Positions 8,926 to 26,214 are shown, numbered from the stretch's first letter. The stretch is 64,000 nucleotides of DNA from a bacterium (GCA_035380285.1 DAOSXE010000015.1:1927-65926), one strand, 5' to 3'. Program-made: numbers and translations. Notes: generated from the letters alone by a model not told the origin.

Positions 8926-11019
8926 ATGACCAGAGAAATACCAATCGAAAAAGTCCGAAACATCGGGGTCATGGCCCACATCGACGCCGGGAAAACCACG
9001 GTGACGGAACGCATCCTTTTCTTCACCGGCCGCAGCCATAAGATCGGAGAGGTACACGACGGCGAAGCGACCATGGACTGGATGGTTCAGGAACAGGAAC
9101 GCGGGATCACCATCACCTCGGCGGCCACCACCGCCTTCTGGAAAGGCCATAGAATCAACATCATCGATACCCCGGGCCACGTCGACTTCACCGCGGAAGT
9201 CGAGCGTTCGCTCCGGGTCCTGGACGGGACCGTCGCTCTCTTCTGCGCGGTGGGCGGCGTCCAGCCCCAGTCGGAGACGGTATGGCGCCAGGCCGAGAAA
9301 TACATGGTCCCGCGTATCGCCTTCATCAACAAGATGGACCGGATCGGGGCCGATTTCGACGGCGTGGTGAAGGAAATCGAGGTGACCCTGGGGGCCAACC
9401 CGGTTCCGATCGTGATCCCGATCGGGGCGGGCGCGGAATTCGAAGGCGTCGTCGATCTGATCGAGATGAAGGCGATTTTCTACGACGAGGCGCCCGTCGG
9501 GGCGCGGATCCGGGAAGAAGCCGTTCCGGCCGAGCTCAGGGAAAGAGCGGAAGCCGCCCGGGAGTTTTTAGTCGAACGGGTCAGCGAACAGGACGACGCC
9601 CTCATGGAGAAATACGTGGGGGGACAGGAACCCTCCCGGGACGAACTGACGGCGGCCCTGCGCGGGGCCGTCATCCGCGGGGAGGTCATCCCGGTCCTCT
9701 GCGGCGCCGCGTTCAAGAATAAGGGCGTCCGCCGGCTGCTCGACGCCATCGTCGATCTTCTCCCCTCCCCCCTCGACCTGCCCCCGGCCATCGGCACCCG
9801 CAAGGAGGAGAACAAGGAGATCATCCGCCACCCTTCCGAGGACGCCCCGCTGGCCGCCCTGGCCTTCAAGATCATGGCCGACCGGCACCTGGGGAAACTG
9901 ACCTACCTGAGGGTCTACTCGGGGGTGCTCGCCAACGGGTCGTTCGTCTTCAACTCCAACCTGGAAACCAGGCAGCGGGTGGGGCGGATATTCCTCATGC
10001 ACGCCAACAAGCAGCAGGCGGTCGACAATTTGAGAGCCGGCGAGGTGGGGGCGGTGGTCGGCCTGGCCGAGACCAGGACCGGAGACACCGTCTGCGACGA
10101 GGCGCACCCCATCATCCTGGAAAATATCGATTTCCCCGCCCCGGTGATCGGGGTGGCCGTGGCCCCCGCCAGCCGGGCGGACCGGGATCGCCTGGCGGCG
10201 GCCCTGAGCCGCCTGGCCGACGAAGACCCCACCTTCACCGTCCGCACCGAAGAGGAGACGGGCGAAGTGATCATCTCGGGCATGGGCGAACTGCACCTCG
10301 AGGTCATCGTCGATCGGCTCAAGCGCGAATTCAACGTCGCGGTCGAAGTCGGGCAACCCCAGGTCGCCTACCGGGAGACGATCCTGGGGGATATCGAGCA
10401 CCGTTACCGCCACGTCAAGCAGACCGGAGGCCACGGCCAGTTCGCCGACATCATCTTCCGGATCGAGCCGGGCCAACCCGGCGAAGGCTTCCAGTTCTTC
10501 AACGAAATCCGGGGGGGGAACATACCCCGGGAATACATTCCTTCGATCGAACGCGGGGTGGTCGACGCCATGGCCCAGGGACCCTACGCCGGATTTCCCA
10601 TGGTCGACATCGTTTATACCGTCCTGGACGGATCGGCCCACGAAGTCGACTCCTCGGACATGGCCTTCCGCACCTGCGCCGCAGTCGGCTTCAAGGAAGC
10701 CTGCCGCAAGGCGGGCCTGCAGCTTCTGGAACCGATGATGAGCGTGGAGATCGTCACCCCCGAAGAATATATCGGCCCCCTGACCGGGAGCATCTGTTCC
10801 AAGCGGGGAAAGGTAACGAGCCTGATCCACAAGGCCACGCACTGCGTCCTCGCGGGCCAGGTGCCCCTGGCCAACATGTTCGGCTATTCCTCGGAACTGC
10901 GCACCATCACCAGCGGCCGCGGCGATTTTTCCATGCATTTCGAACACTACGCCGCCGTGCCCTTCTCCCTGGCGGAGGAGATCGTGGAACGACGGCGCCG
11001 GGAAGAGAAAATTCCCTGA
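8926..11019 (+). CDS. fusA: translation elongation factor G
   Basis: GTPase motifs [18 protein letters not shown] and full-length EF-G-like architecture (697 aa from internal ATG of ORF 8869..11019). Confidence 0.95.
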
Positions 11020-11088
11020 AGCGGCGGCCGCGAGGGGGCCCGGCGGAAAAAAACCGGCTCCCCGGGGGAGGGAACCGGTCGTGGAGCT
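10915..11088. repeat. 174-bp direct repeat, left copy (putative att site); spans last 105 nt of fusA plus 69 nt downstream
   Basis: Identical nucleotide-for-nucleotide to 21573-21746 (read directly). Confidence 0.9.
11047..11078 (-). terminator. duplicated copy of the tRNA-Ala intrinsic terminator inside the left repeat; positioned to terminate the island operon
   Basis: Same sequence as 21705-21736: on the minus strand an 8-bp stem (one G-U pair) followed by U7. Confidence 0.3.
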
Positions 11089-11281
11089 TTGTCCCTCGAT
11101 CTCAAACTTACTTTGACAACGAAAATGCGCCTACCGGAACATACGATTCGTGAAGTGTGGTTTACTTCACGACCGCGTGCGAGTATCGAGCCGCTCAGCA
11201 CGGGCGCGCAATAACCAGTGTCCTTTACCGTGCTGGCATATCATCACCGCTTTCCAGACCATAAGTACTCACTCGCTGAGT

Positions 11282-12310
11282 CTACGGCACCATCCTCGCG
11301 AAGTAAGGGTAGAGACGAGAGTACCGCTCGTAGTTGCTCATCTTGGCGATACTAACTTCCTCCGAGTCATCACCCTCAGTTAGATACCCTAGAGCGGTAA
11401 CACATACTGTCCCGTCTCCCGTTTCGGTCGGCAGAATTTCTTCGAGCTTCAGACGCTCCTTCGTGCTCAGCACCGGAACATCGATCTCATCGATCAAGCC
11501 CGAAGCAGTCACATAGAGGGGGCTCGTAGCCTTAAAGTGACCAAGCAACGCATCTCGGTTATTCTCCGGACAGAACACCCCTGTTATGCTTAACATAATT
11601 GTACCATCCGAGTACTTTGCCACCTGTAGCGGAAGAAAAGTCTTCGGCTTACTGCAAGCGCTCTCCAGAACCGATAGCACCATATGACTGAGCAACCATG
11701 GGAAGTTCTCCTCTTTGAAGTTCTCCCATGTGAACAGGTCATGGTCATAGGATACTTCTGCGACTGTCATGGCCTTCAGGTAATCATCTCGAAACTCATT
11801 GAAATCTTTCTTCTTGTAGGACGGAAGTATCTGCTGATGGCGCCGAAGCTTGACCTCCCTATATACCGGGGTCTCCGCCATGAGCGTTACCCGCAGCACA
11901 CTCCATTCAAGAGCCTGACGTGCGATACCGGACACTTCTGTCAACTCTTGTCGCCCAGCATCAACGTAATCCACCCACACAATCGTTGGTTTTTCGCTGG
12001 GAAACAGCGTTGACAGGAATTCCTCAAACCGACAGGACAGAAGTTTCACTTTTTTTGAACACTGGTGGAATTTCTGTCGCCTGTACGTCTCACCATCACT
12101 CTCAACCGACACCATGTCAAGGTTCGGGAACACGTTGCTCAGCAACCTGAAGTCTTCAAGAAACGGACCTCCAAACCCGATATACAAATGCTCTTTCAAG
12201 CTATGTGTGAGTTCAAACGTACGCAGCAACTCGACCAAGACCAAGCGATCAATAGCCTTGTTGGATCGCAAATGATATGCTGGATGTTTTGGTTTTCTGA
12301 GCCAGGTCAT
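11282..12310 (-). CDS. hypothetical protein, partner of the GHKL ATPase (4-nt overlap)
   Basis: 342-aa ORF with protein-like composition, last gene of the island gene array; no motif I can assign. Confidence 0.5.
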   Translation of the reverse strand: MTWLRKPKHPAYHLRSNKAIDRLVLVELLRTFELTHSLKEHLYIGFGGPFLEDFRLLSNVFPNLDMVSVESDGETYRRQKFHQCSKKVKLLSCRFEEFLSTLFPSEKPTIVWVDYVDAGRQELTEVSGIARQALEWSVLRVTLMAETPVYREVKLRRHQQILPSYKKKDFNEFRDDYLKAMTVAEVSYDHDLFTWENFKEENFPWLLSHMVLSVLESACSKPKTFLPLQVAKYSDGTIMLSITGVFCPENNRDALLGHFKATSPLYVTASGLIDEIDVPVLSTKERLKLEEILPTETGDGTVCVTALGYLTEGDDSEEVSIAKMSNYERYSRLYPYFARMVP

Positions 12311-13740
12311 TCCCTCGCCTCCTCAAGGATCACGTCAAAGCACCTCGCCCCAACATTGGATGGATTTCTGTCGGGGCTATCAAAGATGTACTGTGAAACA
12401 CGACGCACATCCCTGACAGCACGGGTAAAGACTATTCGCTCCGTCGTCTTCTTCTTGTCCGGTCGCGGTAACACAGGTTTGTACTGTTTGCCTTTCACGG
12501 CACCGCGCGTCGCAGTCATGTGCAATTTCAATGCTCGAGTTCGAATCTCGTCAAGCGTCGCTTTGTGTGTTGATCTCATCTCACATCGAGACTTGGCAAC
12601 GAGATCCTTACCTTTCCATTGGTTAGTGTACTGAGTGAACATCTTTGTTCCCTCAATCATCTTGTCACGCACCTGCAGGTAAAGAGGAGATGAGGCCTCG
12701 ATCCCTCTTTTGGTTGTCGTCATAGGCAAGAGATTCGCGTCATCCGCACTGAATATGACAATCCCCGATATCGCAATGAATTGCATGTGGTATTGCGGCA
12801 CTCCCGAAACTCCCCACCCAGTCAAAGGCGTCTTGTCACAGTAAACTACAGTTCGGTCGTTGCAGATCACAGTCCACCCGGCCTCTGCAGAAGAATACCG
12901 CTCCTTGTAGTTCTCAAGGCCTTCGTCTGCCTCCTCTCGGCTGGGGATCGGGCTCGTGAAACCCACAACAAGGAACACATCAACCCCATCGTGTTTCCCT
13001 TCGTAGATAAAGGGCATTATCGGGTGCTTCGATCTCACCGCTTCCTCCGCGAATAGCAGGCTTATGCTCCTAGGAGTTACCGCCTTTCCGTTGATACGGA
13101 CTTCAAACCCCTTGCCAATGATGTACGCATAGTGCGTCGCTACGGCCTCACGAAACGCTCTCTCAAAGGCTCCGGATTCGAATTCCGTACGCACGGATGA
13201 GTAAATACTTCTGATTTCAAGTGTGGTACCAAGAGTTTCTGCTGGCTTGATCGCGACTACGGGAATCAACCAGTCATCCTCTTTTGATATCCACTGCGGT
13301 GATAGCCGCAAACGGTAAGAACCGTCCTTCGCATGTGTTCTGATTGTGCAGTCCGCTCCCATCTTGAAGATGGCGCGCTTCATCCCAATTCCATACGTAC
13401 CGATGGTTTTTTTCCCCTTGTCTATGTCCGCTTTAATCCGTCCCATGCGAAAGGCGTAGTCATGGTATCTCACCGGTATCCCCCCACAGTTGTCTTCAAT
13501 CCTGAAGCGCGTCCCGTCAAACTCAATACTTGCCCAATATCCCTCGTATGGGAGACGCCTAGAAAGTTGCCGTTTCGTTTCAGCCCGCTGAATACCATCT
13601 ACACAGTTATCCAGCAGATCCAGGATCGCATCCTGAAGCTCGATGTCCCTTGTTAGCATATGTACGAAAAACGACTTGACCGGATTGGCCGGAATGTGTG
13701 GGATCTTCCTAAGATGCATCTGAGTAACCTCCTTATTCAA
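12307..13740 (-). CDS. MORC/MutL-like GHKL-superfamily ATPase (restriction/defence-associated type)
   Basis: Bergerat-fold motifs: N-box LDLLDNCVDG, G1 box EDNCGGIP, G2 box GTYGIGMKRAIF in the N-terminal ~200 aa; ~270 aa C-terminal region unassigned. Confidence 0.7.
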   Translation of the reverse strand: MNKEVTQMHLRKIPHIPANPVKSFFVHMLTRDIELQDAILDLLDNCVDGIQRAETKRQLSRRLPYEGYWASIEFDGTRFRIEDNCGGIPVRYHDYAFRMGRIKADIDKGKKTIGTYGIGMKRAIFKMGADCTIRTHAKDGSYRLRLSPQWISKEDDWLIPVVAIKPAETLGTTLEIRSIYSSVRTEFESGAFERAFREAVATHYAYIIGKGFEVRINGKAVTPRSISLLFAEEAVRSKHPIMPFIYEGKHDGVDVFLVVGFTSPIPSREEADEGLENYKERYSSAEAGWTVICNDRTVVYCDKTPLTGWGVSGVPQYHMQFIAISGIVIFSADDANLLPMTTTKRGIEASSPLYLQVRDKMIEGTKMFTQYTNQWKGKDLVAKSRCEMRSTHKATLDEIRTRALKLHMTATRGAVKGKQYKPVLPRPDKKKTTERIVFTRAVRDVRRVSQYIFDSPDRNPSNVGARCFDVILEEARE

Positions 13741-14914
13741 TAAACTCCTTCATGCGACTAAGTACGCTTTCTGCCAGAATCGGGCTGATGCTATTCCCGA
13801 TCTGTCTAAAGCTGTGCCACTTCGTCGAGTCGAACTGGAACCAGTCGGGGAAGCCCTGCAACCGGGCCGCTTCCCGGGGAGTAATGACGCGCGGCTCTGT
13901 GGGGTGAATTGGCCGAAGGGCTTGGTAGCTTCCATGCTCCGGGTCTGAGCCCGATCTTAGAGTCGGACAGAACCCCTTCCGTGCCAAACGCACAGCTCGC
14001 GAAGGCCCGTCAATGGCTCCCTCCGCCAGCTTGGCGAATCTCTCCAGAACGGTTTTCGTATGCCGTGTACCAAGACAGCCTGAAACGCGGTTCTCGTCTT
14101 GCAAGCGCCTAATCGCCTCCAGATCGCCAACACCCTCTGGTATCTTGTCGCGAATCCTTTCCCAAAACGGGCCGCTGTTGTGAGGCGTTACTGTGCGCCA
14201 ACTCTGGGCTTCTTGCTGCCACTCAGGACTGATCTTCTGGCGAAGACCTAGAAGTGCCGTCCCAACGTTGACTTTCGCGACGTTGGCAGGGGGCGCAAAA
14301 CAATCCTTCGTCAACCCGTTCGCACGCCCCACAACAATACCAATAAAGAACACTCGTTCTCGACTTGTTGCCGCGCCGAAATCCGATGCTTTGAGAATAA
14401 TAGGACCGAGGTTTATGTAGTTAGCCACTCTGGCCAACGCATTCGCGCGAACTTCGTCGAATTGAGAGTCCCGTATGCCTAGCACGTTCTCAGCAATGTA
14501 AAACGTGGGTTGAAGCTCCGCCACCAACCGAAAGAAGTGGTCGAACAGGTTGTTGCGCGCGTCATTTGGTTTGCGGCGACCGATTCGACTAAAACCCTGG
14601 CATGGCGGTCCACCGATAACCCCATCAATTCCGTTGATGTCGATTTGGGCCTTCTCAATAAGTTCTGCGCCTGTGAGTTCAGCAATGTTTGCATCAACGT
14701 ATTCGTATTTAGGGAAGTTCTTCTTGAAAGCGGATTTGGCTTGGGCATTGTTATCCACGGCTGCGGCAATCTGGAAGCCTGCGCGCGCTGCACCGAGAGT
14801 CAACCCTCCCACACCGCAGAACAAGTCAATGACCGTCGGCATACCTTCTGTTCCCTTCGCCGTTTTTCTGTTACCCGTGAAGCTCAGATCCGTCTCTATT
14901 CTTAACTGTATCAA
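13733..14914 (-). CDS. dcm: DNA (cytosine-5)-methyltransferase
   Basis: Motif I DLFCGVGG, motif IV catalytic PPCQGFS, ENV motif, C-terminal QIGNSIS. Confidence 0.9.
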   Translation of the reverse strand: MIQLRIETDLSFTGNRKTAKGTEGMPTVIDLFCGVGGLTLGAARAGFQIAAAVDNNAQAKSAFKKNFPKYEYVDANIAELTGAELIEKAQIDINGIDGVIGGPPCQGFSRIGRRKPNDARNNLFDHFFRLVAELQPTFYIAENVLGIRDSQFDEVRANALARVANYINLGPIILKASDFGAATSRERVFFIGIVVGRANGLTKDCFAPPANVAKVNVGTALLGLRQKISPEWQQEAQSWRTVTPHNSGPFWERIRDKIPEGVGDLEAIRRLQDENRVSGCLGTRHTKTVLERFAKLAEGAIDGPSRAVRLARKGFCPTLRSGSDPEHGSYQALRPIHPTEPRVITPREAARLQGFPDWFQFDSTKWHSFRQIGNSISPILAESVLSRMKEFIE

Positions 14915-15313
14915 TCACAGGCACTCCTCAAATCCATCTTCTGAAAGAATCGCTAGCCTTCCCCCTCTGCGAATCCAAGTGGCTATTCTCTTCACATCTC
15001 GGCCTTCACCAAACGCTGGGGTGCGCCTCCGAACGGCGCATTCCCAAATCACGAGAACACGCCAGCCCATATCTAGCAGTTTGCCTCGCACGCACAAATC
15101 TCGCAATCTGTTGCGTTTAATCTTCTTATTCCAAAACTGCTGATTGCTCTTTGCCTTCGGCCTTCGACCACATTCATGCCCATGCCAGTAGCATCCGTGG
15201 ACGAACACAACAGTCTTATGCCCGGCTAGAACAATGTCAGGTCGGCCCGGTAGATTCCTGGCGTGTAACCGATACCTAAAGCCTTCTCCAAACAGCGTCC
15301 TACGCACCTCCAT
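14915..15313 (-). CDS. vsr: very short patch repair endonuclease
   Basis: LPGRPDIV, FVHGCYWHGHEC and GWRVLVIWECA motifs; lies immediately 5-prime of dcm on the same strand with no gap. Confidence 0.85.
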   Translation of the reverse strand: MEVRRTLFGEGFRYRLHARNLPGRPDIVLAGHKTVVFVHGCYWHGHECGRRPKAKSNQQFWNKKIKRNRLRDLCVRGKLLDMGWRVLVIWECAVRRRTPAFGEGRDVKRIATWIRRGGRLAILSEDGFEECL

Positions 15314-15386
15314 TTCCGGGCCTGTGTTTTTCCCCGATTCGCAGCCATGATCTTGTGCCGAGTCTCAGCATTTACTCGGTCCACCA

Positions 15387-15653
15387 TCAAGACTTCCCTG
15401 CCCTTTTGTCCCGTTGATGCACTTTGTTATGACAAACGATGCACAATGTCTTCAGGTTCCCTTCAATATTTACGCTGCCCTTCACGTGATGCTCGATGTG
15501 ATGCAACTCCAAGTGTCGCGGATCGAACGGGTTCCATTCGTCGTGCGCCCACGCGCAAAACCGGCACTTGTCCCCGTCGCGCCGAAGCAACGGAAGCAAG
15601 CCGAACACACAGTTCAATCGCTTGTCCGACATAGAGATGTGGGGCGACCGCAA
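15387..15653 (-). CDS. small HNH endonuclease
   Basis: CRFC ... HHIEHHVKGSVNIEGNLKTLCIVCHNKVH (HNH motif with flanking Cys pairs); 5-prime end overlaps the end of the preceding gene so true start may be the internal Met (MSDKRL). Confidence 0.6.
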   Translation of the reverse strand: MRSPHISMSDKRLNCVFGLLPLLRRDGDKCRFCAWAHDEWNPFDPRHLELHHIEHHVKGSVNIEGNLKTLCIVCHNKVHQRDKRAGKS

Positions 15654-16720
15654 CCTGCAATCTCACCAACCGCCTGACCGACAACAGCGTATGTGTCATA
15701 GCTCGGTATCCGGAGCATTGGACCGGTGAAAGACGCACAAAGAAGAGGTACTCGTTCGCGTAGATGTGCAGACCCCAAATCTCCTCCGCCAATCTTCACA
15801 CCATGGTCAGCCACTACGAACACCCAATCGCCAGAACGAAGAAAATCCAAGAATGACTGTAGAAAAGCGTCAAACCGCTCAAGGGTTCGCCAGCACGCCG
15901 ATGCATCTCCCATGTGGGCATAACGGTCAAAATCCTCCAGATTGACCATGATAAATGCCTCGTCCTCCGCCGCTGTAACCTCTGCATTCAACAGCTCAAA
16001 GCACTGCTCGTCTCGCTCAGTTCGTACTGCCATATTCGCTGGCAAGGATAGGATTTCCTGCACCTTGCCGTTGACTATCCGTCTCCATCCAAGCGGCACG
16101 AATTTCTGCAGCAGAGACTCTCCATCGATCATCTGAAAGAAGTCACGCCGTAGTTCTTCAACCGGTTCTCCGCCACGCAACGGTCTTGCAAGCACCTTCT
16201 TCACGCATAACTCCGCTGATGCATCCAACATGCAGCGGAGTGCCTGTGCGACTTTATATAGACACTCACGGGGCACGACAATTTCATCTGCACTCACGAC
16301 CACAGTGCTGTCGAGCCCCCTATAGAGCATTATTGCCCCAGTTTGCAAATGTTCGAGCCACAACTCCGGGAGAACATCCCTGCCCCTTCCCTGTTTGTTG
16401 CCAATCAACTTAACTCCACAATTATTGCCAAGCTTCATCAGAACATCACGCGGTAGCGGTTCCGAGGGTATAGGGTGAGGTTGTTTAGTTATCCATCCGA
16501 ACATCTCGCGATGTCCTTCCTCCGATCCCACCGCGACTGACGCTTGTCTCATCACATGTCCACGACCCGTGACCGCAGCATCCAATCCCATATTAAAAAG
16601 GACTGGAAGAACGGAGATTTTGCGGCCGTACTGTTCGCACAGAGTCCCTAGGGTGCTGGTCTCACCGCCGTCAGGAGCAACTCCAAAACCATCTACAACG
16701 ATCACAAAAACGCGCGACAT
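15614..16720 (-). CDS. phosphopentomutase-like metalloenzyme (alkaline phosphatase superfamily)
   Basis: N-terminal FVIVVDGFG, central NLEDFD, C-terminal VVADHG ... HLRERVPLL, matching the DeoB-type motif order. Confidence 0.7.
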   Translation of the reverse strand: MSRVFVIVVDGFGVAPDGGETSTLGTLCEQYGRKISVLPVLFNMGLDAAVTGRGHVMRQASVAVGSEEGHREMFGWITKQPHPIPSEPLPRDVLMKLGNNCGVKLIGNKQGRGRDVLPELWLEHLQTGAIMLYRGLDSTVVVSADEIVVPRECLYKVAQALRCMLDASAELCVKKVLARPLRGGEPVEELRRDFFQMIDGESLLQKFVPLGWRRIVNGKVQEILSLPANMAVRTERDEQCFELLNAEVTAAEDEAFIMVNLEDFDRYAHMGDASACWRTLERFDAFLQSFLDFLRSGDWVFVVADHGVKIGGGDLGSAHLRERVPLLCASFTGPMLRIPSYDTYAVVGQAVGEIAGCGRPTSLCRTSD

Positions 16721-18534
16721 CAGGATTCAAATTTTCTGATTCGCAGGTTAACGAATTCAACAACTTTCCGCCAAAGACTGGCGATTGAAACTTTGCTGCC
16801 AAGCGAGAGTTCTCCTTCATACTGAAGAAGAAGAGGAATGATCGGTATAGTTACCTTTAGCTTGTCCGTAACAGAAATATCAGACTTCAGCACAGTGGAA
16901 GTAACGGAGACCCGTTCTGCGACCTTAGGCAAAATGGCTGAAGATTTTATGGTGTCACAGAGCGTCGCTAACACCTCTCTGGATTCTTCAAGCAGCGCTT
17001 TCATCTCCTCTGTTTCAGGCTCATGGTCCATCGCTGAGACGAATGACTCGACAACAACATCCCGGGCCGTTCTCGCCTCTGATACCGCCTCTGTAGCAGC
17101 GATCTTCCCTGCCATCTGAAGTTGTTCGTATTCCATGACAGACGCGACGACTCTGCCCCGTATCTCTAGGATATCTTCCTCAAGCCGCTGGATGCTTTTG
17201 GGTCGGTCCTCGACTCTCAGGGTATCTTCAGTGCGTTTGAGAAGGACGAAGTCCTTGCGTAGATTATCCCGAATATCTTCCAGCCTCTGTTTCTCTACCG
17301 GTATCCCGTTAGCCACTGTTTCGTCCTTCCTCTCTTCACAGGATCTGGGAACGCCGACGATTCTCCTCACATCGGTCAGAATATCCTTTGGGGCCGATGC
17401 CTCGGAGACAGCGCCAAGAATATGCACCAATGCTGTCACGCTCGAACGTATCCGCTCTGGGTCCGAAAGCAACCCGCGTCCCATTTGAATCATCACGTCC
17501 GCACCAAATGTCTCAACGTTCTGAAATATTTCTTCGAGGAAAATACTTCCCGAAGAAACAGCGAAGCATGGTCTGAGACCATACTGATCGCCCTGTAGCT
17601 TTTCGATTTCCTCCTTCAATATTGCTTGCTCATACGGAAAATCCTGGGTGAACGGCCCTGTGTAGACAGCATCTCCACCTGCAAGTCGCGAAAGTAGGGC
17701 AATTACCTGCTCCGCTAGGTAGTGCGTGCTCTTGCGCGTCAATACACCCCGGCCGATGTTGTTCACAACGAATGCTGTCTGACCATCACACGTATCGATC
17801 ACATGCCTGACAGCCGAAAAACCCATCGCGATACAGTTGAGGGTAAAACCACAAACGCCATGGCGCTGTCCATCCTCGACCAAGCGCAAGGATGTCTCCA
17901 CATCTGCGGTTGCATTCATGAAGTAGCCCAACTTGCGCCCCGTTTTCTCTTGGGCTGCAGTAACTACGGTTTCAATGGCCTGTGCGCGTTGTCCAAATGG
18001 ACTACAACTTGGGGACACGAGCAACTCGTCGTCAATCACGTAGTCAACACCACCCTCCAATGCTCTTTGCACTGTTGGGAGAATATCAGATAGACTCATG
18101 CGCAACCGCGGTTTCAGGATGAGCCCCAGAAGCGGCCGTTGGGAAACACCAAGAAGCTTCCTAATCCCTGATACACCATACCTTGGCCCCTTGTATTCAT
18201 CGAGGCAAACTTTGGGCAATGCCAGATCCACCACGGCAAATCGCTTCAGCGCTGAAAAGACAGAGCAATAGCACACACTCCCTAGGAGCATGGCGAGACC
18301 CGTACCAAGTCCAGCAGAACAAGGCGGCAGGGACAAAAGCACTTCAAGCTCGTTCTTGGATTGATCAATCTCACGAACATCGAGAATCTCTGGGTCTTCG
18401 TGAAATTCACAAGGCTCATCGGTACGTCGCAGCGGAATCGTTCCGGTGCTGCCTAGATCCATCGCAGCGAGGAGTTGCTTCAGCCCCTTCTCACGGTTTT
18501 CTAGGATCATGTGAAGTGTTACAGTTGCATGCAT
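16720..18534 (-). CDS. RuBisCO large-subunit-like protein (RLP) with Lys-to-Ile at the carbamylation position and a ~200-aa C-terminal extension
   Basis: [29 protein letters not shown] parallels the RuBisCO [30 protein letters not shown] signature; [10 protein letters not shown] aligns to [18 protein letters not shown] parallels GHYLNATA; C-terminal region is charged and coiled-coil-like. Confidence 0.7.
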   Translation of the reverse strand: [604 protein letters not shown]

Positions 18535-18543
18535 AATCGATCC

Positions 18544-19113
18544 TTAGTGCTTAACGTCAATGACTTTGCCATCTACAAGAAAGGTTCCGCTCGTCAAGTG
18601 GTACACCTGCGGTATTGCACTTCTCAGTTTTATCTTATCCTCTGAGAACAATTCTTTATCGATATCTGCTGCAACGACCAATCCAACAACAACGTGGTGG
18701 TTTCCTGCCTCCTTGTGCCATTGCAGCTTACATTCCAGATTGACTGCACATTCTGCTATCCGCGCGGGCTTCACCTTGTTCCTCGCATATGGTGTCAATC
18801 CCGTTTCCTCAAACTCATCCACGGCCGGCGGATACTCGTTAGCAGCCTGGTAAAGTTGAGTCAGAATCTTGCTCGTAGGAATTCCTACCACAAACTCGCC
18901 GGTCTTTGAGATATTCTTGAAGGTGTCAGACTTTGGCGAGATACCAAGCGCAACCATCGGGGGGCACGTCGAACACGGCGTGAACATAGCGTAGGGTGCC
19001 AAGTTCTTAACCCCCGCTGTGTCGACCGTTGACACGAGTACAACAGGGGACGGCTGAACCAAGTAGACAACTTTTGCAACTTTGTCTAAGACCTCGATCT
19101 TCTGATACTTCAT
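18544..19113 (-). CDS. flavin reductase-like (FMN-binding split-barrel) protein
   Basis: VVLVSTVD...NLAPYAMFTPCS..PPMVALGI...DTFKNISKTGEFVVGIP pattern typical of flavin reductase family. Confidence 0.7.
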   Translation of the reverse strand: MKYQKIEVLDKVAKVVYLVQPSPVVLVSTVDTAGVKNLAPYAMFTPCSTCPPMVALGISPKSDTFKNISKTGEFVVGIPTSKILTQLYQAANEYPPAVDEFEETGLTPYARNKVKPARIAECAVNLECKLQWHKEAGNHHVVVGLVVAADIDKELFSEDKIKLRSAIPQVYHLTSGTFLVDGKVIDVKH

Positions 19114-21059
19114 CTTGTATCTCCTCTCATCTGATCTACCATTTCAACCAAATCCGCAAAAACAAGGTCTGGCCGGGAATCATGCGTGCGTCGAGCCACA
19201 TCTTCAGCAGTACTTATCCCTCCAAGAACAAGGCAAGCCAACGCTCCAGCCTTTCTGGCTGCTGCTATGTCAGTATCGAGCGAATCCCCAATTACGGCTA
19301 CCTCTTGCGGTTTCATACCCATAAGATGAAGTAGAAGGCGAAGCGAGAAGTCATTTGGTTTCCCCACGACAAAGGGCGATTTGCCAGTTACTGTTTCAAT
19401 TGCAGCCACAATCCAGCCAGTTCCGGGCTTGTCCATACCCGGAGCAGCGAACACACGATCCCGGTCCGTGCATACGAACTCCGCACCCTTCAAAATTGCT
19501 CGCTGGGCTGCCACTAGGTCGGCATATATGAAATCCTTTGAATAGCCAACGACAACTGCGTCAATGTAACCAGTGTGATCATTGGCGGCGATATCCATGC
19601 CACCGCAGGCGAGCAACTCAGGTAGTGCTGGTGCTCCACCCAGCACCAAGCAACACCTGTATCCCTTAGTGCGGCAATACTCGGCAGCGGCAATAGTGGA
19701 CGTCATGATATGCCGCGGGTCCGCTATCACGGCCATCTGGCCGAGTTTGTCTGCTAACTCCTGCTGCCTTCTTACGCTCGTGTTTGTCAAGAAGCCAACT
19801 GTAACGCCAGATTGTCGCAAAATGCGAATGGCCGCGAGGCTGGCTTCTATCGGCTTGTCTCCTTTATAGAGAACACCGTCGAGATCCAGCACAACTCCCC
19901 GTTTTGAAGCCAGATCCCGCAGCTTATCCGTGGACTTTACTGGCACCCTCGGATGGCGTGGCTCGCGTGGGCGTGAACATTGGATCGTATAGAGCGACCT
20001 CACGGCGGTATTCCAGGATAGCTTGTACTCTTCATGGCCGCGCATGAAATCAACTTCCTGTAGCCCGTTATCGCAAGCCCATCGAATCGCTTCACCCAAT
20101 AGCACTAGCCCCGGAGAACAATCGTCTAACGCCAAATCAAAGGATGTGTTCCAGTCATAGTATCTGCCACCACGGATGAAGCCCATCCGATAAGCAACTA
20201 TGTTGCCGTTCAGAAGCAGATGAAAAAGACAGAAATTCCCGGTTCCGGCGAAATCTTTCGCAACGTCATGAATGAAGCCTCTGCGCCTTGTGTCGGCAAA
20301 TGCTTGGACTCCGTGAATACTGTCCCAACGAGTATCATGGAGATCAAATAGACGTTCGAGGGTTTCATGGTCGTAATCCCGGACAACTTGGAGTTCTACC
20401 TTGCCGCGGCGGCGCAGAGCCCGCATCTTGCGGTTCAGCATTCGCCGCCGGTTTCTTGTCCGTGACTTAAGATACTTATCCCAAGAACAACCAAGTTCTA
20501 TATACGGCGCATCCTCTGCCCTGACAATAACCGGTGATAGACCGCAATCTTGAAGTGCACGTGTTACAATGTGCAAGGTGACGTCATCTTGCCGTATGTT
20601 TTGTAGCCTTATTTCATCCCATTCCAAATGGTCGCACATCGCGGCTGCGATGCGGTCGATAGGATCACATGCAAAGGCCGAGAAGACTCCGCCTAGGTAG
20701 TCACTACAACAATCAGAAAGAAGCGTAAGGATCGTATGGGATCCTACGCGTTTGCGCATCAGAGGCAGAATGGCAAGAACGTCATCTCCCAGCGCGGCCC
20801 AGAAGATGGACAATTCCCTGTCAGAACCGAAGTGGCCCCACCAGTACGAAAGCCAACGTGGATCAACCGAGACTGGAAGGTTAGGCTGTTTTTCAAGGAT
20901 CTTAACCCAGTGAGGGTAGATTGCGGACCACTCCTCATTGCTCCTCACAACACCGACCTGGGCCCTACGATAGTCGCGTTCCGTCGACATGTAGTTACGC
21001 AGGGAATATTGCCAACTTGTCTGTGATGCATCCAGCCAGCTATCGCTGCACATCATCAC
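19110..21059 (-). CDS. fusion protein: large N-terminal FemAB/CelD-like acyltransferase-type domain (tentative) plus C-terminal HAD-IIA phosphatase domain
   Basis: C-terminal HAD motifs in order (VVLDLDGVLY, FLTNTS, GKP, IGDSLDTDI) are clear; N-terminal ~370 aa Trp-rich domain assigned by resemblance only. Confidence 0.65.
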   Translation of the reverse strand: MMMCSDSWLDASQTSWQYSLRNYMSTERDYRRAQVGVVRSNEEWSAIYPHWVKILEKQPNLPVSVDPRWLSYWWGHFGSDRELSIFWAALGDDVLAILPLMRKRVGSHTILTLLSDCCSDYLGGVFSAFACDPIDRIAAAMCDHLEWDEIRLQNIRQDDVTLHIVTRALQDCGLSPVIVRAEDAPYIELGCSWDKYLKSRTRNRRRMLNRKMRALRRRGKVELQVVRDYDHETLERLFDLHDTRWDSIHGVQAFADTRRRGFIHDVAKDFAGTGNFCLFHLLLNGNIVAYRMGFIRGGRYYDWNTSFDLALDDCSPGLVLLGEAIRWACDNGLQEVDFMRGHEEYKLSWNTAVRSLYTIQCSRPREPRHPRVPVKSTDKLRDLASKRGVVLDLDGVLYKGDKPIEASLAAIRILRQSGVTVGFLTNTSVRRQQELADKLGQMAVIADPRHIMTSTIAAAEYCRTKGYRCCLVLGGAPALPELLACGGMDIAANDHTGYIDAVVVGYSKDFIYADLVAAQRAILKGAEFVCTDRDRVFAAPGMDKPGTGWIVAAIETVTGKSPFVVGKPNDFSLRLLLHLMGMKPQEVAVIGDSLDTDIAAARKAGALACLVLGGISTAEDVARRTHDSRPDLVFADLVEMVDQMRGDTR

Positions 21060-21572
21060 TCCTGTTACTTGCTTTTTTCTTCCCGGGCGGCGAGATTCTC
21101 CTCAATCATGCGTGACACAATCCAAGAGAGCGAACGCTCCTCTTTCTCCGTCAACTCTTCCAAGATTTCTTAGACTTGCGGGGTAACTCGGACGCTCAGG
21201 AGTTTTATTTTCAGTTCAACCTTGTGCCTTTTCGTAGGGTGTACGACGTCATGCATTTGCATGCTGATTTTAATAATATATGATGTGTATGCTGTGTGAT
21301 GATAGTAGAAAGAAGAAGGATCCGATAAACTGCTTTCTGTATGCCCATTAGTCGATTGATTAGTCCACCCGTCAGATGCTATAAATTGAGGCGCAGGTCA
21401 CGGGACTTTTGGAGTATGCCCAGAAGGAACGTCTGCATCGTGGAGAAGTTTACGGAATTCATGACAGCATGGAAACCGGGCTGACCGGTTTTCAATGCAA
21501 TGATGGATCGGGGAGTCAAATGCGCTGCTCGCGTGGCTCCCTGACCGCTTCGGGCGTAACCCACTCGGCGGG

Positions 21573-21677
21573 GGCCGCGGCGATTTTTCCATGCATTTCG
21601 AACACTACGCCGCCGTGCCCTTCTCCCTGGCGGAGGAGATCGTGGAACGACGGCGCCGGGAAGAGAAAATTCCCTGA
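21573..21677 (+). pseudogene. duplicated 3-prime fragment of fusA (last 34 codons plus stop) created by the repeat; not an independent gene
   Basis: Sequence identical to fusA 10915-11019 but lacks the upstream ~2 kb of the gene. Confidence 0.7.
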
Positions 21678-21704
21678 AGCGGCGGCCGCGAGGGGGCCCG
21701 GCGG

Positions 21705-21736
21705 AAAAAAACCGGCTCCCCGGGGGAGGGAACCGG
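21705..21736 (-). terminator. intrinsic terminator directly downstream of tRNA-Ala
   Basis: On minus strand: ccgguucc / ggagccgg stem (8 bp, one G-U) with 9-nt loop followed by U7, beginning 4 nt after the tRNA 3-prime end. Confidence 0.5.
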
Positions 21737-21739
21737 TCG

Positions 21740-21812
21740 TGGAGCTGAGGGGATTCGAACCCCTGACCCCATGGCTGCCAGCCATGTGCTCTCCCAGCTG
21801 AGCTACAGCCCC
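21740..21812 (-). tRNA. tRNA-Ala (anticodon GGC)
   Basis: Reverse complement folds as cloverleaf: acceptor GGGGCTG/CAGCTCC with G3-U70 alanine identity pair, D-arm GCTC/GAGC, anticodon loop CTGGCAG, T-arm AGGGG-TTCGAAT-CCCCT; CCA not encoded. Confidence 0.9.
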
Positions 21813-21826
21813 GATCAATCGGGTCA

Positions 21827-21854
21827 ACTATAGCCGCGGAGCCGATCTAGTCAA
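21827..21854 (-). promoter_or_regulatory. candidate promoter for tRNA-Ala (TTGACT-16 nt-TATAGT on minus strand)
   Basis: Near-consensus hexamers read on minus strand, -10 ending ~15 nt upstream of tRNA 5-prime end, A/T-rich upstream tract. Confidence 0.4.
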
Positions 21855-21901
21855 ATAAAAACTGCAGCGCCGTTCCCGACGCTGCCCGGGGCCGCGGGTT
21901 G

Positions 21902-21910
21902 TGGTATACT
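21902..21910 (+). promoter_or_regulatory. candidate extended -10 element (TGgTATACT) upstream of the Memo-AMMECR1 gene
   Basis: TGn-TATACT read directly ~17 nt before the ATG at 21927; no clear -35. Confidence 0.25.
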
Positions 21911-21926
21911 CAAAAGGCGGGAACCC

Positions 21927-23465
21927 ATGAACCGGATACTGCCGATAATCTGCTTGAGCGCGGCGATAGCGGGCGGGGGCTGCTCCGCCGAGGATAAGCC
22001 GGCGGCGGGGGCGGGCGAACGGAAGCCGGTCCTGGCGGGCTCCTACTATCCCGCCGACCCCGGCGAACTCAAACGGGAAGTGGATGCCCTGCTTGCCGCC
22101 GCCCCCGAAGTTTCCGTTCCCGGGAGGCTGCTGGCCGTGGTCGCTCCTCACGCCGGTTACGTTTATTCGGGACCCACCGCCGCCGCCGCCTTCAAGGCCG
22201 TGCGGGGGAGGAAGATCGCCACGGTCGTACTCGTCGGCTGCGCCCACCGGGTCGGCTTCCCCGGCGTCTCCGTCCCCGATTTCTCCTCTTACCGGACCCC
22301 CCTGGGGGCGGTGCCGGTCGATTCGGTTCTGGCGGAGCGGATCCGGGCGGCCGCCCCGGAGATTGTCAGCATTCCCGGGGTCCACCGCAGCGAACCCACC
22401 CTGGAGGCGGAGATCCCCTTCATCCAGACGGTGCTCCCCGACGCCCGGATCGTGCCGGTTTTGATCGGGGATGCGCCGCCGGCGGCCTTGGCCGCGCTGG
22501 GAACGGTCCTGGGCGACATTCTCAGGGACGATCCGGAAACGATCGCGGTCTGCAGCACCGATCTCAGCCACTACCCCGGCGTCGAAGACGCGGCCCGGGT
22601 CGACCGGCAGACGCTTGAAGCCGTGGCGGCGCTCGATCCTTCCCGTCTCGACCTGGTCCGGGAGCGCTTCGAAGGCGGGAACGTTCCCAACCTGGTCTGC
22701 GTCATGTGCGGATTCCGGGGGGTCAAGGCCGTCGTTGCCGCGGCCCTCCGGGCCGGGGCCGACGGAGCCGCCGTCATCGCCTACGCCAATTCGGCCGATT
22801 CCCCGGCGGGGAACCCCGACTCCGTGGTCGGTTACGGCGCGGTGGCGATTTACGATTCCGAACGAGACCGAGCGGACAATCAGGAGGAGCAGCCCATGAA
22901 CACCGCCACCGACGCAAATCTCTCGCCGAAGGCCCGGGCGGAACTGCTGAAGACGGCCCGCGAAGCCCTGACCGCGGTCGTCAACGGCAGGCCGCTTCCC
23001 GATTCCCCCATCGACGACCCCGAACTCCAGGGGCACCGGGGCGCGTTCGTCACCCTCAACGAAAACGGGGCCCTGCGCGGGTGCATCGGCCAGTTCACCG
23101 CCGACGAGCCCCTCTACCGGGTGGTGCGCACCATGGCCCGCGAAGCCGCCCTCCACGATCCCCGTTTCGTCCCGGTCTCCCCCGCCGAAGCGGACCGGAT
23201 CGACATCGAAATCTCGGTTCTCTCCCCCATGCGGCGGATCTCCGATCCCCTCCGGGAGGTGGTGCCGGGCAAACACGGCATCTACATCCGGCGGGGGGCG
23301 CGGGGGGGCACCTACCTGCCCCAGGTCGCCACCGAACACCACATGGGACTGGAGGAGTTCCTCTCCTCCTGCTGCGCCCACAAAGCCGGCCTGGCTCCCG
23401 ACGCCTGGAAAGACCCGGAGACGGAGGTCTACGTCTACACCGCCGAGGTCTTCGGCGAGGAGTGA
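21927..23465 (+). CDS. Memo-like / AMMECR1 fusion lipoprotein (AmmeMemoRadiSam-type domains)
   Basis: Lipoprotein-like signal (ICLSAAIAGGGCS); N-terminal AGSYYP and APHAGYVYSG; C-terminal GAFVTLNENGALRGCIG and DPRF. Confidence 0.8.
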   Translation: MNRILPIICLSAAIAGGGCSAEDKPAAGAGERKPVLAGSYYPADPGELKREVDALLAAAPEVSVPGRLLAVVAPHAGYVYSGPTAAAAFKAVRGRKIATVVLVGCAHRVGFPGVSVPDFSSYRTPLGAVPVDSVLAERIRAAAPEIVSIPGVHRSEPTLEAEIPFIQTVLPDARIVPVLIGDAPPAALAALGTVLGDILRDDPETIAVCSTDLSHYPGVEDAARVDRQTLEAVAALDPSRLDLVRERFEGGNVPNLVCVMCGFRGVKAVVAAALRAGADGAAVIAYANSADSPAGNPDSVVGYGAVAIYDSERDRADNQEEQPMNTATDANLSPKARAELLKTAREALTAVVNGRPLPDSPIDDPELQGHRGAFVTLNENGALRGCIGQFTADEPLYRVVRTMAREAALHDPRFVPVSPAEADRIDIEISVLSPMRRISDPLREVVPGKHGIYIRRGARGGTYLPQVATEHHMGLEEFLSSCCAHKAGLAPDAWKDPETEVYVYTAEVFGEE

Positions 23466-23523
23466 ACCCCGGCGGGGCGGCTCCTCCCGGTTCCGGTTTC
23501 ATCTGGATTCCGGGCGGCGAATA

Positions 23524-26214
23524 ATGCGAGAATCCTTTCGTCCGAAACGGATCCCGATGAACCCGCGTAAATCATTCACAATTTCGGCCCTGATAATCGC
23601 GGCCGCGGCCGTCGCCGCCGCCGTGGTCTTTCCCACCGAAACCGCCCGTTTCGACATCCCCGTGGCTTTCACCTTCAGCGGGGAAGACCTGCTGGTCGTC
23701 GAGAAAAACGACAACACCATCCTGCGGCTGCGCGGGTTTTCCCCCGGTGCCCCGATGCACCTGGAGGAGGAGCGGGCCATCGAACCCGACGACGACCGTT
23801 TCTACTACATGGTCAGGGACCTGTATCCGGCCCCCGGGGGGGTCATGGTCCACAGCTACATCTACGACCGTCGGACCACCGACTTTCTGGGCTACCGCTT
23901 CAACCTCTACCGGGATATCGCCCGGGCGCCCGAAACCGTCTTCACCATTTTCCTCAAGGAACCCGACGAATCCCCGGAGCTGCGCTACGCCGCCGGGCCC
24001 GGGGGGCGGCATTATTTCGCCAACAACTGCCGGGGACAACGTTGCGTCTGGCGGCTGCCGGAGGATGCCCGGGGAGTGGTCATGACAAACGGCGTTCCCC
24101 CCGCGGAGATCCAGGAGTTGGGCGACCGCAACGGCGAGTTCGGGTACTGGATGAGCCTCTTCGTCGACCCGGAGGGGACGACATACCTCTCGTCCGGCGA
24201 AGACGACCAGATCGTCCGGTTCGACTCCGAGGGCAAGCGGCTGAGGGCGTGGGGACGACCGGGACGGGAGCGGGGGGAACTTCTGGCCCCGGTGGACGTT
24301 TTCCTGCTGGCGGAGGCTCCGGGAGGGGAACCCCGGTTGACCGTGGCCGGAACCGGCAACCGCGACTGGGTCTGTTTCGACCGTGAGGGGGAACCCGTCC
24401 GGGTCATAGAACCCCTGGAAAAAGGGTATCCTTACATCGATATCCTGGTGGGAAGGATCTTCGATATCGCGGGGAGGAACCTCAGCTACGACCTGGCCAA
24501 CAAGTGCCTGGTCGTCGCGGGTCCGACCTTCGAAGCCGTCGAGGTCTTCCGCAGGCCCGCCCGGCTCCGGACGGTCCTGCTCTGGCTGGGGGCGGGGCTG
24601 CTGGTCCTGCTGATCGCCGCCCGGGACCGCCTGGCCGCCCTCTGGAGACGGAGGAGGATTCCGGTTTTTTTCAAGATCATGCTTATTTTCGCGCCGCTGG
24701 TGGTGGGGGGGTTCCTCATCAGTTCCCGGGCCCGCAAGATCAGCTACCAGGCCTACCTGGAGGAGTCGAGGCTTCGTTCCGCCAACCTGGCCCGGGCGAT
24801 CCTCAACAGCGTCCCCGTCGAGGAACTGGAGAACATCAACCGGCCCGAAGACCGGGGAAGCGAAACCTACGAGAAGATATTCGCCGCCGCCGACCGCCTG
24901 ATCGACCGCAAAAACGTCCCCCAGACTCCGAAGTGGATCATCCATAAGATCGCGGGGGGACGCTATTACTTCGGGATCAACAGCTGGAGAGGCCCCATCT
25001 TCGAGCCTTTCATCGTCCCCGCCCAGCGCAGGATGTTTCTGGACGCGCTGGTGAAGAAGGAGCCGGCCTGGGGGCGGTTCGTCGACGACCAGGGGGAGTG
25101 GGTGAGTTACCTCCTCCCCGTTCTCGATCGGCACGGCGAAGTCATCAACGTCATCGAAATCTACCGGTCCACGGAGGAGATGGCCCGGATAGAACAGGAG
25201 ACCTTGAGCAGGGTCAAGGAAAACGCGGTTCTGATCGTGATCTCCTTCACCCTGCTGGCCCTGGTCTTCTCCTGGCTGTTCGTGCGGCGCCTGAAGCGAC
25301 TGACCGTGGAAACCCGCGAAATCAGCCGGGGCGATTTCAGCCGGCGCGTCGATTCCCGGGCCCGGGACGAGGTCGGCGACCTGGGCCGCGCCTTCAACCA
25401 CATGGCCGAGGACCTGAAGAACTACACCCGGGAACTGGAGAAAACCACCGCGGAGAAGGAAAAGATCCAGAGCGAACTGCGCCTGGCCCACCAGATTCAA
25501 CAGGACATCCTTCCCCACGTTTTTCCCCCGGAGGTGGCTTCACAAAAAGTCGAACTCTTCGGCAGAATGGTGCCGGCCCGGGAGGTGGGAGGCGATTTTT
25601 ACGACTACATCATGATCGACGATCATCACATCGGAGTGGCCATCGCCGACGTTTCCGGGAAAGGGGTTCCCGCCAGCCTCTTCATGATGGTCACCCGGAC
25701 CCTGCTCTTCAGCAACGCCTCCTTCAACCGGGAAGCGGCCGAAACCATCGCCAAGGTCAACCGGCTCCTCTGCCTCAACAACACCTCCTGCACGTTCGTC
25801 ACCCTGTTTTATTTCGTCTGCGACCTGAGGACGGGCCGTTTGGAATACTGCAACGCCGGCCACAACCCGCCGGTGGTGCGCAAGGGCGGGGCCGTCCGCC
25901 TCCTGCGCGAGCCCGGAGAAACGGGGCAGCCGGCCCTGGGGATACTGGAGGATGCGGACTACCGCCAGGGGCGTATGACCCTCGATCCGGGAGACGTTCT
26001 CCTCCTCTACACCGACGGGGTCACCGAGTGGCACAACCGCGACAACGAGCTCTTCGGAGAAGAACGGCTGCTGCGGGCGGTGGCCGAAGCGGGCGACCTC
26101 CCCGCCCGCGACCTGGCCGCGACGGTTTTCGCCAAGCTGGAGGCCTTCGGGGGGGAAGTCGAGCAGTTCGACGACACCACGATGCTGGTTTTCAGATACC
26201 TGGGACATCCCTGA
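23524..26214 (+). CDS. membrane sensor PP2C-type (SpoIIE/RsbU-like) serine phosphatase with periplasmic domain and HAMP linker
   Basis: N-terminal hydrophobic segment, large extracytoplasmic region, second TM, HAMP-like segment (GDLGRAFNHMAEDL), then VGGDFYDY ... DVSGKG ... YTDGVTE. Confidence 0.8.
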   Translation: MRESFRPKRIPMNPRKSFTISALIIAAAAVAAAVVFPTETARFDIPVAFTFSGEDLLVVEKNDNTILRLRGFSPGAPMHLEEERAIEPDDDRFYYMVRDLYPAPGGVMVHSYIYDRRTTDFLGYRFNLYRDIARAPETVFTIFLKEPDESPELRYAAGPGGRHYFANNCRGQRCVWRLPEDARGVVMTNGVPPAEIQELGDRNGEFGYWMSLFVDPEGTTYLSSGEDDQIVRFDSEGKRLRAWGRPGRERGELLAPVDVFLLAEAPGGEPRLTVAGTGNRDWVCFDREGEPVRVIEPLEKGYPYIDILVGRIFDIAGRNLSYDLANKCLVVAGPTFEAVEVFRRPARLRTVLLWLGAGLLVLLIAARDRLAALWRRRRIPVFFKIMLIFAPLVVGGFLISSRARKISYQAYLEESRLRSANLARAILNSVPVEELENINRPEDRGSETYEKIFAAADRLIDRKNVPQTPKWIIHKIAGGRYYFGINSWRGPIFEPFIVPAQRRMFLDALVKKEPAWGRFVDDQGEWVSYLLPVLDRHGEVINVIEIYRSTEEMARIEQETLSRVKENAVLIVISFTLLALVFSWLFVRRLKRLTVETREISRGDFSRRVDSRARDEVGDLGRAFNHMAEDLKNYTRELEKTTAEKEKIQSELRLAHQIQQDILPHVFPPEVASQKVELFGRMVPAREVGGDFYDYIMIDDHHIGVAIADVSGKGVPASLFMMVTRTLLFSNASFNREAAETIAKVNRLLCLNNTSCTFVTLFYFVCDLRTGRLEYCNAGHNPPVVRKGGAVRLLREPGETGQPALGILEDADYRQGRMTLDPGDVLLLYTDGVTEWHNRDNELFGEERLLRAVAEAGDLPARDLAATVFAKLEAFGGEVEQFDDTTMLVFRYLGHP

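Follow-up and report, generated by a model that had tools for sequence, protein, structure and literature searches.

A genomic island without a recombinase, framed by a long direct repeat of host sequence between fusA and tRNA-Ala

How does a block of foreign DNA that encodes no recombinase come to lie between two exact copies of a host sequence? This question is raised by a 64,000-nucleotide stretch of bacterial DNA (GCA_035380285.1, DAOSXE010000015.1:1927-65926), called the window below, with all coordinates counted from its first letter. In the window, a 10.5-kb island of low G+C content separates fusA from a tRNA-Ala gene and is bounded on each side by one copy of a perfect 174-nt direct repeat, designated R. 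The reading preferred here, tentative when all of its steps are taken jointly, is that a circle carrying a host-derived copy of R was inserted by a single crossover.

The repeat, its site and the island between its copies

The two copies of R (10915-11088 and 21573-21746) are identical over all 174 nt (100% identity); they start 10,658 nt apart and enclose 10,484 bp. R is the sole long repeat within positions 9000-24000, and a 45-nt segment taken from it is found at exactly two places in the window and in none of 100 shuffled sequences. The features of the site are the following.

8926-11019, plus strand: host fusA (EF-G), intact, 697 aa
10915-11088, plus strand: left copy of R, with a minus-strand intrinsic terminator (stem 11080 to 11052, then a T-run) 3' of the island operon
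21573-21746, plus strand: right copy of R, a duplicated fusA 3' end and spacer that are non-functional, with a terminator stem (21738 to 21710) directly 3' of tRNA-Ala
21740-21812, minus strand: tRNA-Ala(GGC), intact, with a promoter-like site at 21854 to 21827

The left copy begins on a codon boundary and comprises the last 105 nt (35 codons) of fusA, with the stop codon at 11017-11019, followed by 69 nt. In the right copy the last 7 nt (TGGAGCT), which also end the left copy, are the 3' end of the acceptor stem of tRNA-Ala, a gene returned as a single minus-strand call (21739/21740-21812) on which ARAGORN and Rfam agree. R is thus made up of 105 nt of fusA 3' end, 62 nt of non-conserved spacer holding the tRNA terminator and 7 nt of tRNA; 167 of its 174 nt lie outside tRNA-Ala, and the anticodon loop and the T-loop are both excluded. 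R has a single inverted repeat, the G+C-rich terminator hairpin of 11-7-11 geometry. Sequence identity stops sharply at both edges of R, and an extended, diverged fusA fragment beside the right copy was considered and rejected, the codons upstream being unrelated. The repeat search together with ARAGORN and Rfam therefore reproduced every element of the repeat as first described in the initial annotation, namely its perfect identity, its coordinates, its division into 105 and 69 nt and its overlap with the tRNA. Because R duplicates the terminator, tRNA-Ala and the island operon would each end at a terminator copy of their own: transcription of tRNA-Ala is predicted still to stop ahead of the island, and that of the island operon to meet the left copy before antisense entry into fusA.

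The island differs from its surroundings in composition, as had been noted from its lower G+C content. Indeed, it contains 51.5% G+C, against 65.8% and 66.0% in the two flanks and 66.7% in R, and two further measures agree: the G+C content at third codon positions is 0.51-0.59 in eight of the nine island genes (0.70 in the HNH gene, which has 82 codons) and 0.78-0.85 in host genes, and the tetranucleotide correlation is 0.17-0.30 between the island and host segments as against 0.96-0.98 between host segments. The 10.5-kb block is recent, horizontally acquired, foreign DNA. R itself is of host-type composition, unlike the island between its copies; since sequence that is both host-like and non-conserved is not expected from an element of 51% G+C, R appears to have been copied from this lineage.

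Scans of the open reading frames (ORFs) of the island with Pfam, NCBIfam, PADLOC and PHROGs revealed no domain of an integrase, excisionase, transposase, relaxase or replication protein, and the earlier statement that no recombinase, excisionase or transposase lies between the repeats stands; small ORFs in the two non-coding ends were listed and judged by eye only. The Pfam labels of the genes in the roughly 10 kb flanking each side include no integrase, excisionase or transposase, and none was seen at 34-64 kb, where 20 further likely genes were scanned and encode host functions such as a type II secretion system, a sigma factor, Maf and peptidases. One host gene in that region (56568-57932, minus strand) encodes a histone H1-like HC2 N-terminal region fused to a phosphoribulokinase/uridine kinase domain. 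Searches inside the island for partial copies of R, tRNA fragments and terminal inverted repeats gave chance-level matches only, and neither the island nor its right end showed DNA-level similarity to plasmid or phage collections. Integration through the Xer/dif system, as in integrative mobile elements exploiting Xer (IMEX), was also considered and rejected, R having no match to the 28-bp dif consensus of E. coli or B. subtilis with up to 11 mismatches; the dif site of this lineage may differ.

The window sequence occurs at 100% identity in at least ten independent assemblies, drawn from two NCBI metagenome-assembled genomes (MAGs; unclassified 'bacterium'), four JGI metagenomes, and assemblies from ENA and, for SRA runs, from Logan. 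The island lies on three long contigs of different assemblies (30.6, 76.7 and 159.7 kb): both junctions are spanned by the loci taken from the 30.6- and 76.7-kb contigs, and the tRNA-side junction by that of the 159.7-kb contig as well as by two further contigs. A simple assembly artefact, which the initial annotation had named as one finding that would overturn its description, is unlikely in view of these identical assemblies and junction-spanning contigs. The island is present in all sampled populations, including both strain variants. These variants differ in a giant WD40/beta-propeller protein with an LTD domain (28132-33924, minus strand), which is 1930 aa or 1867 aa long depending on the sample; no other difference between strains was noticed in the population, which is otherwise near-clonal.

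Possible routes of arrival

Elements whose tyrosine integrases target tRNA genes duplicate the segment that runs from the anticodon loop or the T-loop to the 3' end of the tRNA, and their integrase gene usually lies beside the tRNA-proximal attachment (att) site. The island resembles such islands and prophages in that it abuts a tRNA 3' end, has a foreign composition, is flanked by direct repeats and leaves the tRNA intact. It differs from them in that it contains no integrase and in that R consists of 7 nt of tRNA and 167 nt of downstream host sequence. As the anticodon loop and the T-loop, where crossovers in tRNA genes usually fall, both lie outside R, the layout is not that of classical integration by a tRNA integrase. 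The first description, which likened the layout to site-specific integration at a tRNA 3' end, therefore holds for the position next to the tRNA and fails for the repeat itself. Among the three origins then proposed (mobilisation in trans, loss of an integrase, or homologous recombination on the 174-bp segment), the last fits the sequence best, R having the composition of the host.

We infer a circular form of the island that would have carried an identical, host-derived 174-bp copy of R. A Campbell-type crossover between R on the circle and R on the chromosome would have converted the order fusA-R-tRNA into fusA-R-island-R-tRNA, and no simpler process is apparent that gives this order. The host segment on the circle would most economically have been acquired by an aberrant excision, resembling that of specialised transduction, of an ancestral element resident at the 3' end of tRNA-Ala; such an event would have added 167 nt of flanking host DNA at one end of the element and removed the other, tRNA-proximal end, which is the usual place of an integrase gene. 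The island could then be excised or amplified by recombination between the two copies of R, with host functions doing the work. Two lesions in small island genes, a frameshift in vsr and a nonsense codon in a ribbon-helix-helix (RHH) gene, are counted in favour of this reading, though neither gene serves mobility. Specialised transducing phages (lambda dgal heterogenotes) and F-primes arise by aberrant excision and are then re-inserted by homology. The proposed route is like theirs in that one step would gain a host flank and lose genes of the other end, and in that homologous insertion would duplicate a host segment; unlike them, the island has no phage or conjugative functions, and the likeness is a mechanistic analogy only.

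Several points weigh against this reading. The 11-7-11 terminator hairpin in R would also suit the core site of a tyrosine recombinase, and the 7-nt reach into the tRNA could be a remnant of an att core or a microhomology. The lineage is known from one near-clonal population, and the 90% cluster of its FusA protein has three members, all from that population. The sole relative in the genome collection is 56% identical (in the Memo-AMMECR1 protein) and is not syntenic on the fusA side: its tRNA-Ala still adjoins the Memo-AMMECR1 gene, and a thioredoxin-like gene occupies the place of fusA. No empty site, circular junction or island-free relative was present among the sequences retrieved. Both DNA scans of metagenomes were uninformative; the one for a fusA-R-tRNA pattern gave no match, and neither did its positive control, the 45-nt piece of R that is known from JGI contigs. 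The collection scanned therefore does not hold these samples, and its negatives are not evidence of absence.

The main rival of insertion by a single crossover is a decayed element of the cis-mobilisable type (CIME), that is, an integrative and conjugative element (ICE), an integrative and mobilisable element (IME) or a prophage-like element that integrated by its own tyrosine recombinase at an att site within R. The candidate att site would be the terminator hairpin, 8 nt from the tRNA end, which has the arm-spacer-arm geometry of recombinase core sites, and the element may still move in cis or in trans through a related element. CIMEs are defined by attL and attR flanks in direct repeat and by the lack of integration and transfer genes (PMC5704250), and the island agrees with this definition in that direct repeats flank it beside a housekeeping gene and a tRNA 3' end and in that it lacks genes for integration and transfer, the role of R as att being putative. 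Its tRNA-proximal end, with 310-510 nt of non-coding DNA and a disrupted small regulator, is consistent with a deletion scar, and elsewhere one part of its cargo, the RuBisCO-like cassette described below, is apparently linked to a conjugation-type TrwB/TraG coupling protein and DUF932, on two contigs of one genome. However, CIMEs are recognised by att sites in common with those of a known ICE or IME family, remnants of which they often retain; no such family or partner element was identified for the island, no second element is known at this site, and remnants of integrase, relaxase or transfer genes were not found in the island. Site-specific recombination does not require perfect identity over 174 nt, and a foreign element of 51% G+C is not expected to share 167 nt of non-conserved sequence of host composition. 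Taken together, an origin as a CIME is possible but doubtful.

Two further explanations are less probable. Linear foreign DNA might have been caught at a staggered break or a stalled fork, with fill-in or template switching copying 174 nt of target. The abrupt edges of R on both sides, the lack of anything R-like in the island and the absence of a recombinase would suit such a long target-site duplication; it leaves unexplained, however, why R ends exactly 7 nt inside the tRNA. We know of no bacterial insertion pathway that yields target duplications of about 174 nt, and this explanation is unlikely. It is very unlikely that the real state is an empty fusA-R-tRNA site together with a separate 10,658-bp circle (island plus R), the two having been joined by assemblers. 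Both states would give an identical k-mer graph, and most short-read contigs do end inside R at exactly k bases (141, 123, 127 or 30), which is how a de Bruijn graph behaves at a repeat with two ways in and two ways out. Two contigs, L005 (10966-21746) and L006 (10915-21602), measure 10,658 + 123 nt and 10,658 + 30 nt, that is, one island unit plus k. These lengths are suggestive only, since they fit a circle or a tandem amplification and equally one host link missing from the graph. Against separate molecules stand the three long contigs that contain the island, with the junctions that they and two others cross, the absence of a replication gene from the island, and the fact that none of the contigs retrieved joins fusA straight to tRNA-Ala.

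An experimental precedent exists for mobility without a self-encoded recombinase. The microcin H47 island of E. coli, 13 kb long and carrying extensive direct repeats, encodes no recombinase and yet excises and integrates, as shown experimentally; this mobility is RecA-independent and has been attributed to host functions (PMC3191183, PMC5426353). The present island is likewise small, flanked by extensive direct repeats and devoid of a recombinase of its own, and the H47 island is a precedent in favour of the reading preferred here. The two differ in that the H47 repeats are imperfect, serve as att sites and occur in many strains, whereas R is perfect, consists of host gene, terminator and tRNA sequence, and is known here from sequence alone. 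The island is therefore a further case of a known kind, that of islands with long repeats and no recombinase; what is unusual is that the repeat is made of a host gene end, a terminator and a tRNA end.

The cargo: a restriction-modification-like module and a RuBisCO-like cassette

The cargo is of defence type and has two parts, a restriction-modification (RM)-like module and a rare RuBisCO-like cassette. Public gene calls agree with the nine minus-strand genes reported at first, all in one array, to which a disrupted small RHH gene has to be added. In the order of transcription, an AT-rich promoter-like region is followed by the RHH-like gene, the four cassette genes (GNAT-HAD, flavin reductase, RuBisCO-like, phosphopentomutase-like) and the genes for HNH, Vsr, Dcm, GHKL and PF20553. 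The array stops about 200 nt ahead of the terminator in the left copy of R. From left to right, the island holds the following features.

11089-11281, no strand: left non-coding end, 193 nt, 51% G+C, without host homology or significant repeat
11282-12310, minus strand: PF20553 (Methyltransf_35) protein, 342 aa
12307-13740, minus strand: GHKL (HATPase_c_3) ATPase, 470-477 aa, MORC/paraMORC-like
13733-14914, minus strand: C-5 cytosine DNA methyltransferase (Dcm)
14915-15387, minus strand: Vsr mismatch endonuclease, annotated as a 132-aa ORF (14915-15313)
15387-15653, minus strand: stand-alone HNH nuclease, 81-88 aa
15614-16720, minus strand: phosphopentomutase-like metalloenzyme, 368 aa, cassette gene 4
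16720-18534, minus strand: RuBisCO-like protein, 604 aa
18544-19113, minus strand: flavin reductase-like protein, 189 aa, cassette gene 2
19110-21059, minus strand: fusion of a GNAT/FemAB-like (Acetyltransf_6) domain and a HAD-IIA phosphatase, 647-649 aa, cassette gene 1
21065-21262, minus strand: small ribbon-helix-helix-like gene, so classified from its sequence pattern, with an in-frame TAA at 21170-21172
21263-21572, no strand: right non-coding end, which meets R abruptly

The RHH gene was not found 5' of related cassettes. The AT-rich stretch (21200-21400), of about 40% G+C, has weak minus-strand sites resembling promoters, and the roughly 170 nt that follow contain 57-62% G+C and have no recognisable function; in the right non-coding end Rfam matched the tRNA end alone.

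In the RM-like module, Vsr, Dcm, GHKL and PF20553 form a conserved four-gene operon, of which copies of 61% and 50% identity occur in other metagenomes (L031 and L032). One of these operons has a SIR2-like gene two genes away; the other has OLD-TOPRIM and UvrD-helicase genes, neighbours that we read as Gabija-like. The GHKL-PF20553 pair also lies within a DISARM locus on plasmid pR24_2 of Microvirga terrae (L034, 7013-9427), between an MmeI-like methylase and drmA, where the PF20553 partner is labelled 'O-methyltransferase'. In the Pseudomonas phage PfAC20, a filamentous Pf prophage (L035, 280-3711), a related GHKL gene and an unannotated neighbour stand beside a cytosine methyltransferase, and PHROG families exist for both the GHKL and the PF20553 proteins. 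These contexts suggest that the pair is a mobile accessory of defence systems based on methylation. AlphaFold models the PF20553 protein with confidence (pLDDT 90.8) in a class I S-adenosylmethionine-dependent methyltransferase fold, and this protein is a conserved partner of the GHKL ATPase with a predicted methyltransferase fold; no relative with a solved structure was found by sequence for either the PF20553 or the GHKL protein.

A canonical Vsr N-terminus (MVDRVNAETRHKIMAANRGK) is encoded 5' of the 132-aa ORF, in another frame, and the vsr frameshift lies at an A-run near 15325-15335. The Vsr proteins of relatives are 157-161 aa long, and the frameshift is predicted to truncate or inactivate Vsr in the island copy. 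As the lesion is the same in all assemblies, it is real. The HNH gene is absent from related copies of both modules. Its 81-aa product is encoded with a 19-nt overlap of the end of the phosphopentomutase-like gene and has the HNH domain of IscB as its best named match.

Predicted RM systems of the MORC/paraMORC class have been described by Iyer, Abhiman and Aravind in 2008 (PMC2292703). They combine in one operon a methyltransferase, a GHKL ATPase and Vsr or another nuclease, a combination that is represented here by Dcm, GHKL, Vsr and HNH. That paper cites a reference for the Vsr N-terminus as the part interacting with MutL-type GHKL proteins. The island is like these systems (PMC2292703) in encoding Dcm, Vsr and the GHKL ATPase in one operon. 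It is unlike them in that no classical restriction endonuclease was identified in it, its Vsr is frameshifted, and an HNH nuclease and a PF20553 partner are present in addition.

The second part of the cargo is built around a protein in which the large-subunit barrel of RuBisCO is recognisable. A bona fide RuBisCO (forms I-III) was considered and rejected, the carbamylatable Lys201 of KDDE and the KPK motif not being kept. Indeed (i) the carbamylated lysine is replaced by isoleucine (IDDE for KDDE) in all nine members of the family of about 600 aa and in a shorter relative (P0010), (ii) the KPK motif (Lys175 and Lys177) is changed to KPR (K177 being Arg), and (iii) in our reading of the alignment, the catalytic histidines (His294 and His327) also appear to be replaced. 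The protein carries a C-terminal tail of about 220 aa, modelled as low-confidence helices, that ends in a conserved KLxLxxPIIPxLLxY motif; this helical, coiled-coil-like tail with its PIIP motif could serve in oligomerisation or in contact with a membrane or an effector. In the GNAT-HAD fusion, the HAD motif DLDGV is intact, and the cassette enzymes look intact as judged from their sequences. By analogy with known enzymes, together they suggest chemistry on a phosphorylated pentose.

Among 5.8 billion proteins, the very rare RuBisCO-like family is represented by about 10 clusters, and the GNAT-HAD fusion is just as rare. So far as the contigs reach, the four genes keep one and the same order in all lineages found, the most distant having 32% identity. 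One group of neighbours consists of Cas10, type III RM genes, a GmrSD/HEC-05-like gene and IS481-type fragments; another consists of DruA, HerA, DUF932 and a TrwB/TraG coupling protein, and further neighbours include an IS66 transposase and a radical SAM enzyme, as well as an HD-CE protein and a DUF4145 protein. The cassette and the RM-like module thus both recur beside defence or mobility genes in unrelated metagenomic lineages. PADLOC (PADLOC-DB v2) and PHROGs gave no match for any of the four cassette proteins, the RuBisCO-like protein was not seen on viral contigs, and no paper tying RuBisCO-like proteins to defence was found in the literature. A Zixibacteria MAG (GCA_028700875.1; L030, 2200-7500) encodes a 426-aa relative that also has IDDE; its neighbours, a stand-alone HAD-IIA phosphatase, a thymidylate kinase, a NUDIX hydrolase and a tyrosine integrase, hint at a link to nucleotide metabolism and mobility.

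Pairing of a RuBisCO fold with a phosphatase is known from metabolism: the MtnW enolase, a form IV RuBisCO-like protein, pairs with the HAD phosphatase MtnX, and the archaeal type III nucleoside-RuBisCO route has a 2-phosphoglycolate phosphatase. The cassette is like both in that genes for a HAD phosphatase and a phosphopentomutase-like enzyme accompany that for a protein with a RuBisCO fold. It is unlike them in that its protein lacks the carbamylated lysine and has a helical tail of about 220 aa, and in that this protein is tied, in a fixed and very rare set of four genes, to a GNAT-HAD fusion and a flavin reductase, in defence and mobile neighbourhoods instead of metabolic operons. The defence role suggested for the cassette follows from its gene neighbourhood alone. 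On this basis the cassette might, speculatively, be a new anti-phage or conflict system that works through a nucleoside-derived phosphorylated pentose, or a small molecule derived from it, and that has spread on mobile or defence islands, the present island moving through R without a recombinase of its own.

In summary, the island is a clean example of a recombinase-less element bordered on both sides by a long duplicated stretch of host sequence, consisting of a gene 3' end, a terminator and a tRNA 3' end. An insertion of this layout can spare both neighbouring genes and their terminator, and the layout speaks for recombination on captured host DNA and not for an att site and integrase pair. 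The RuBisCO-like cassette is a more novel lead than the island as a mobile element; if it is a defence system, a new enzyme fold, and probably a new chemistry, would enter phage defence.

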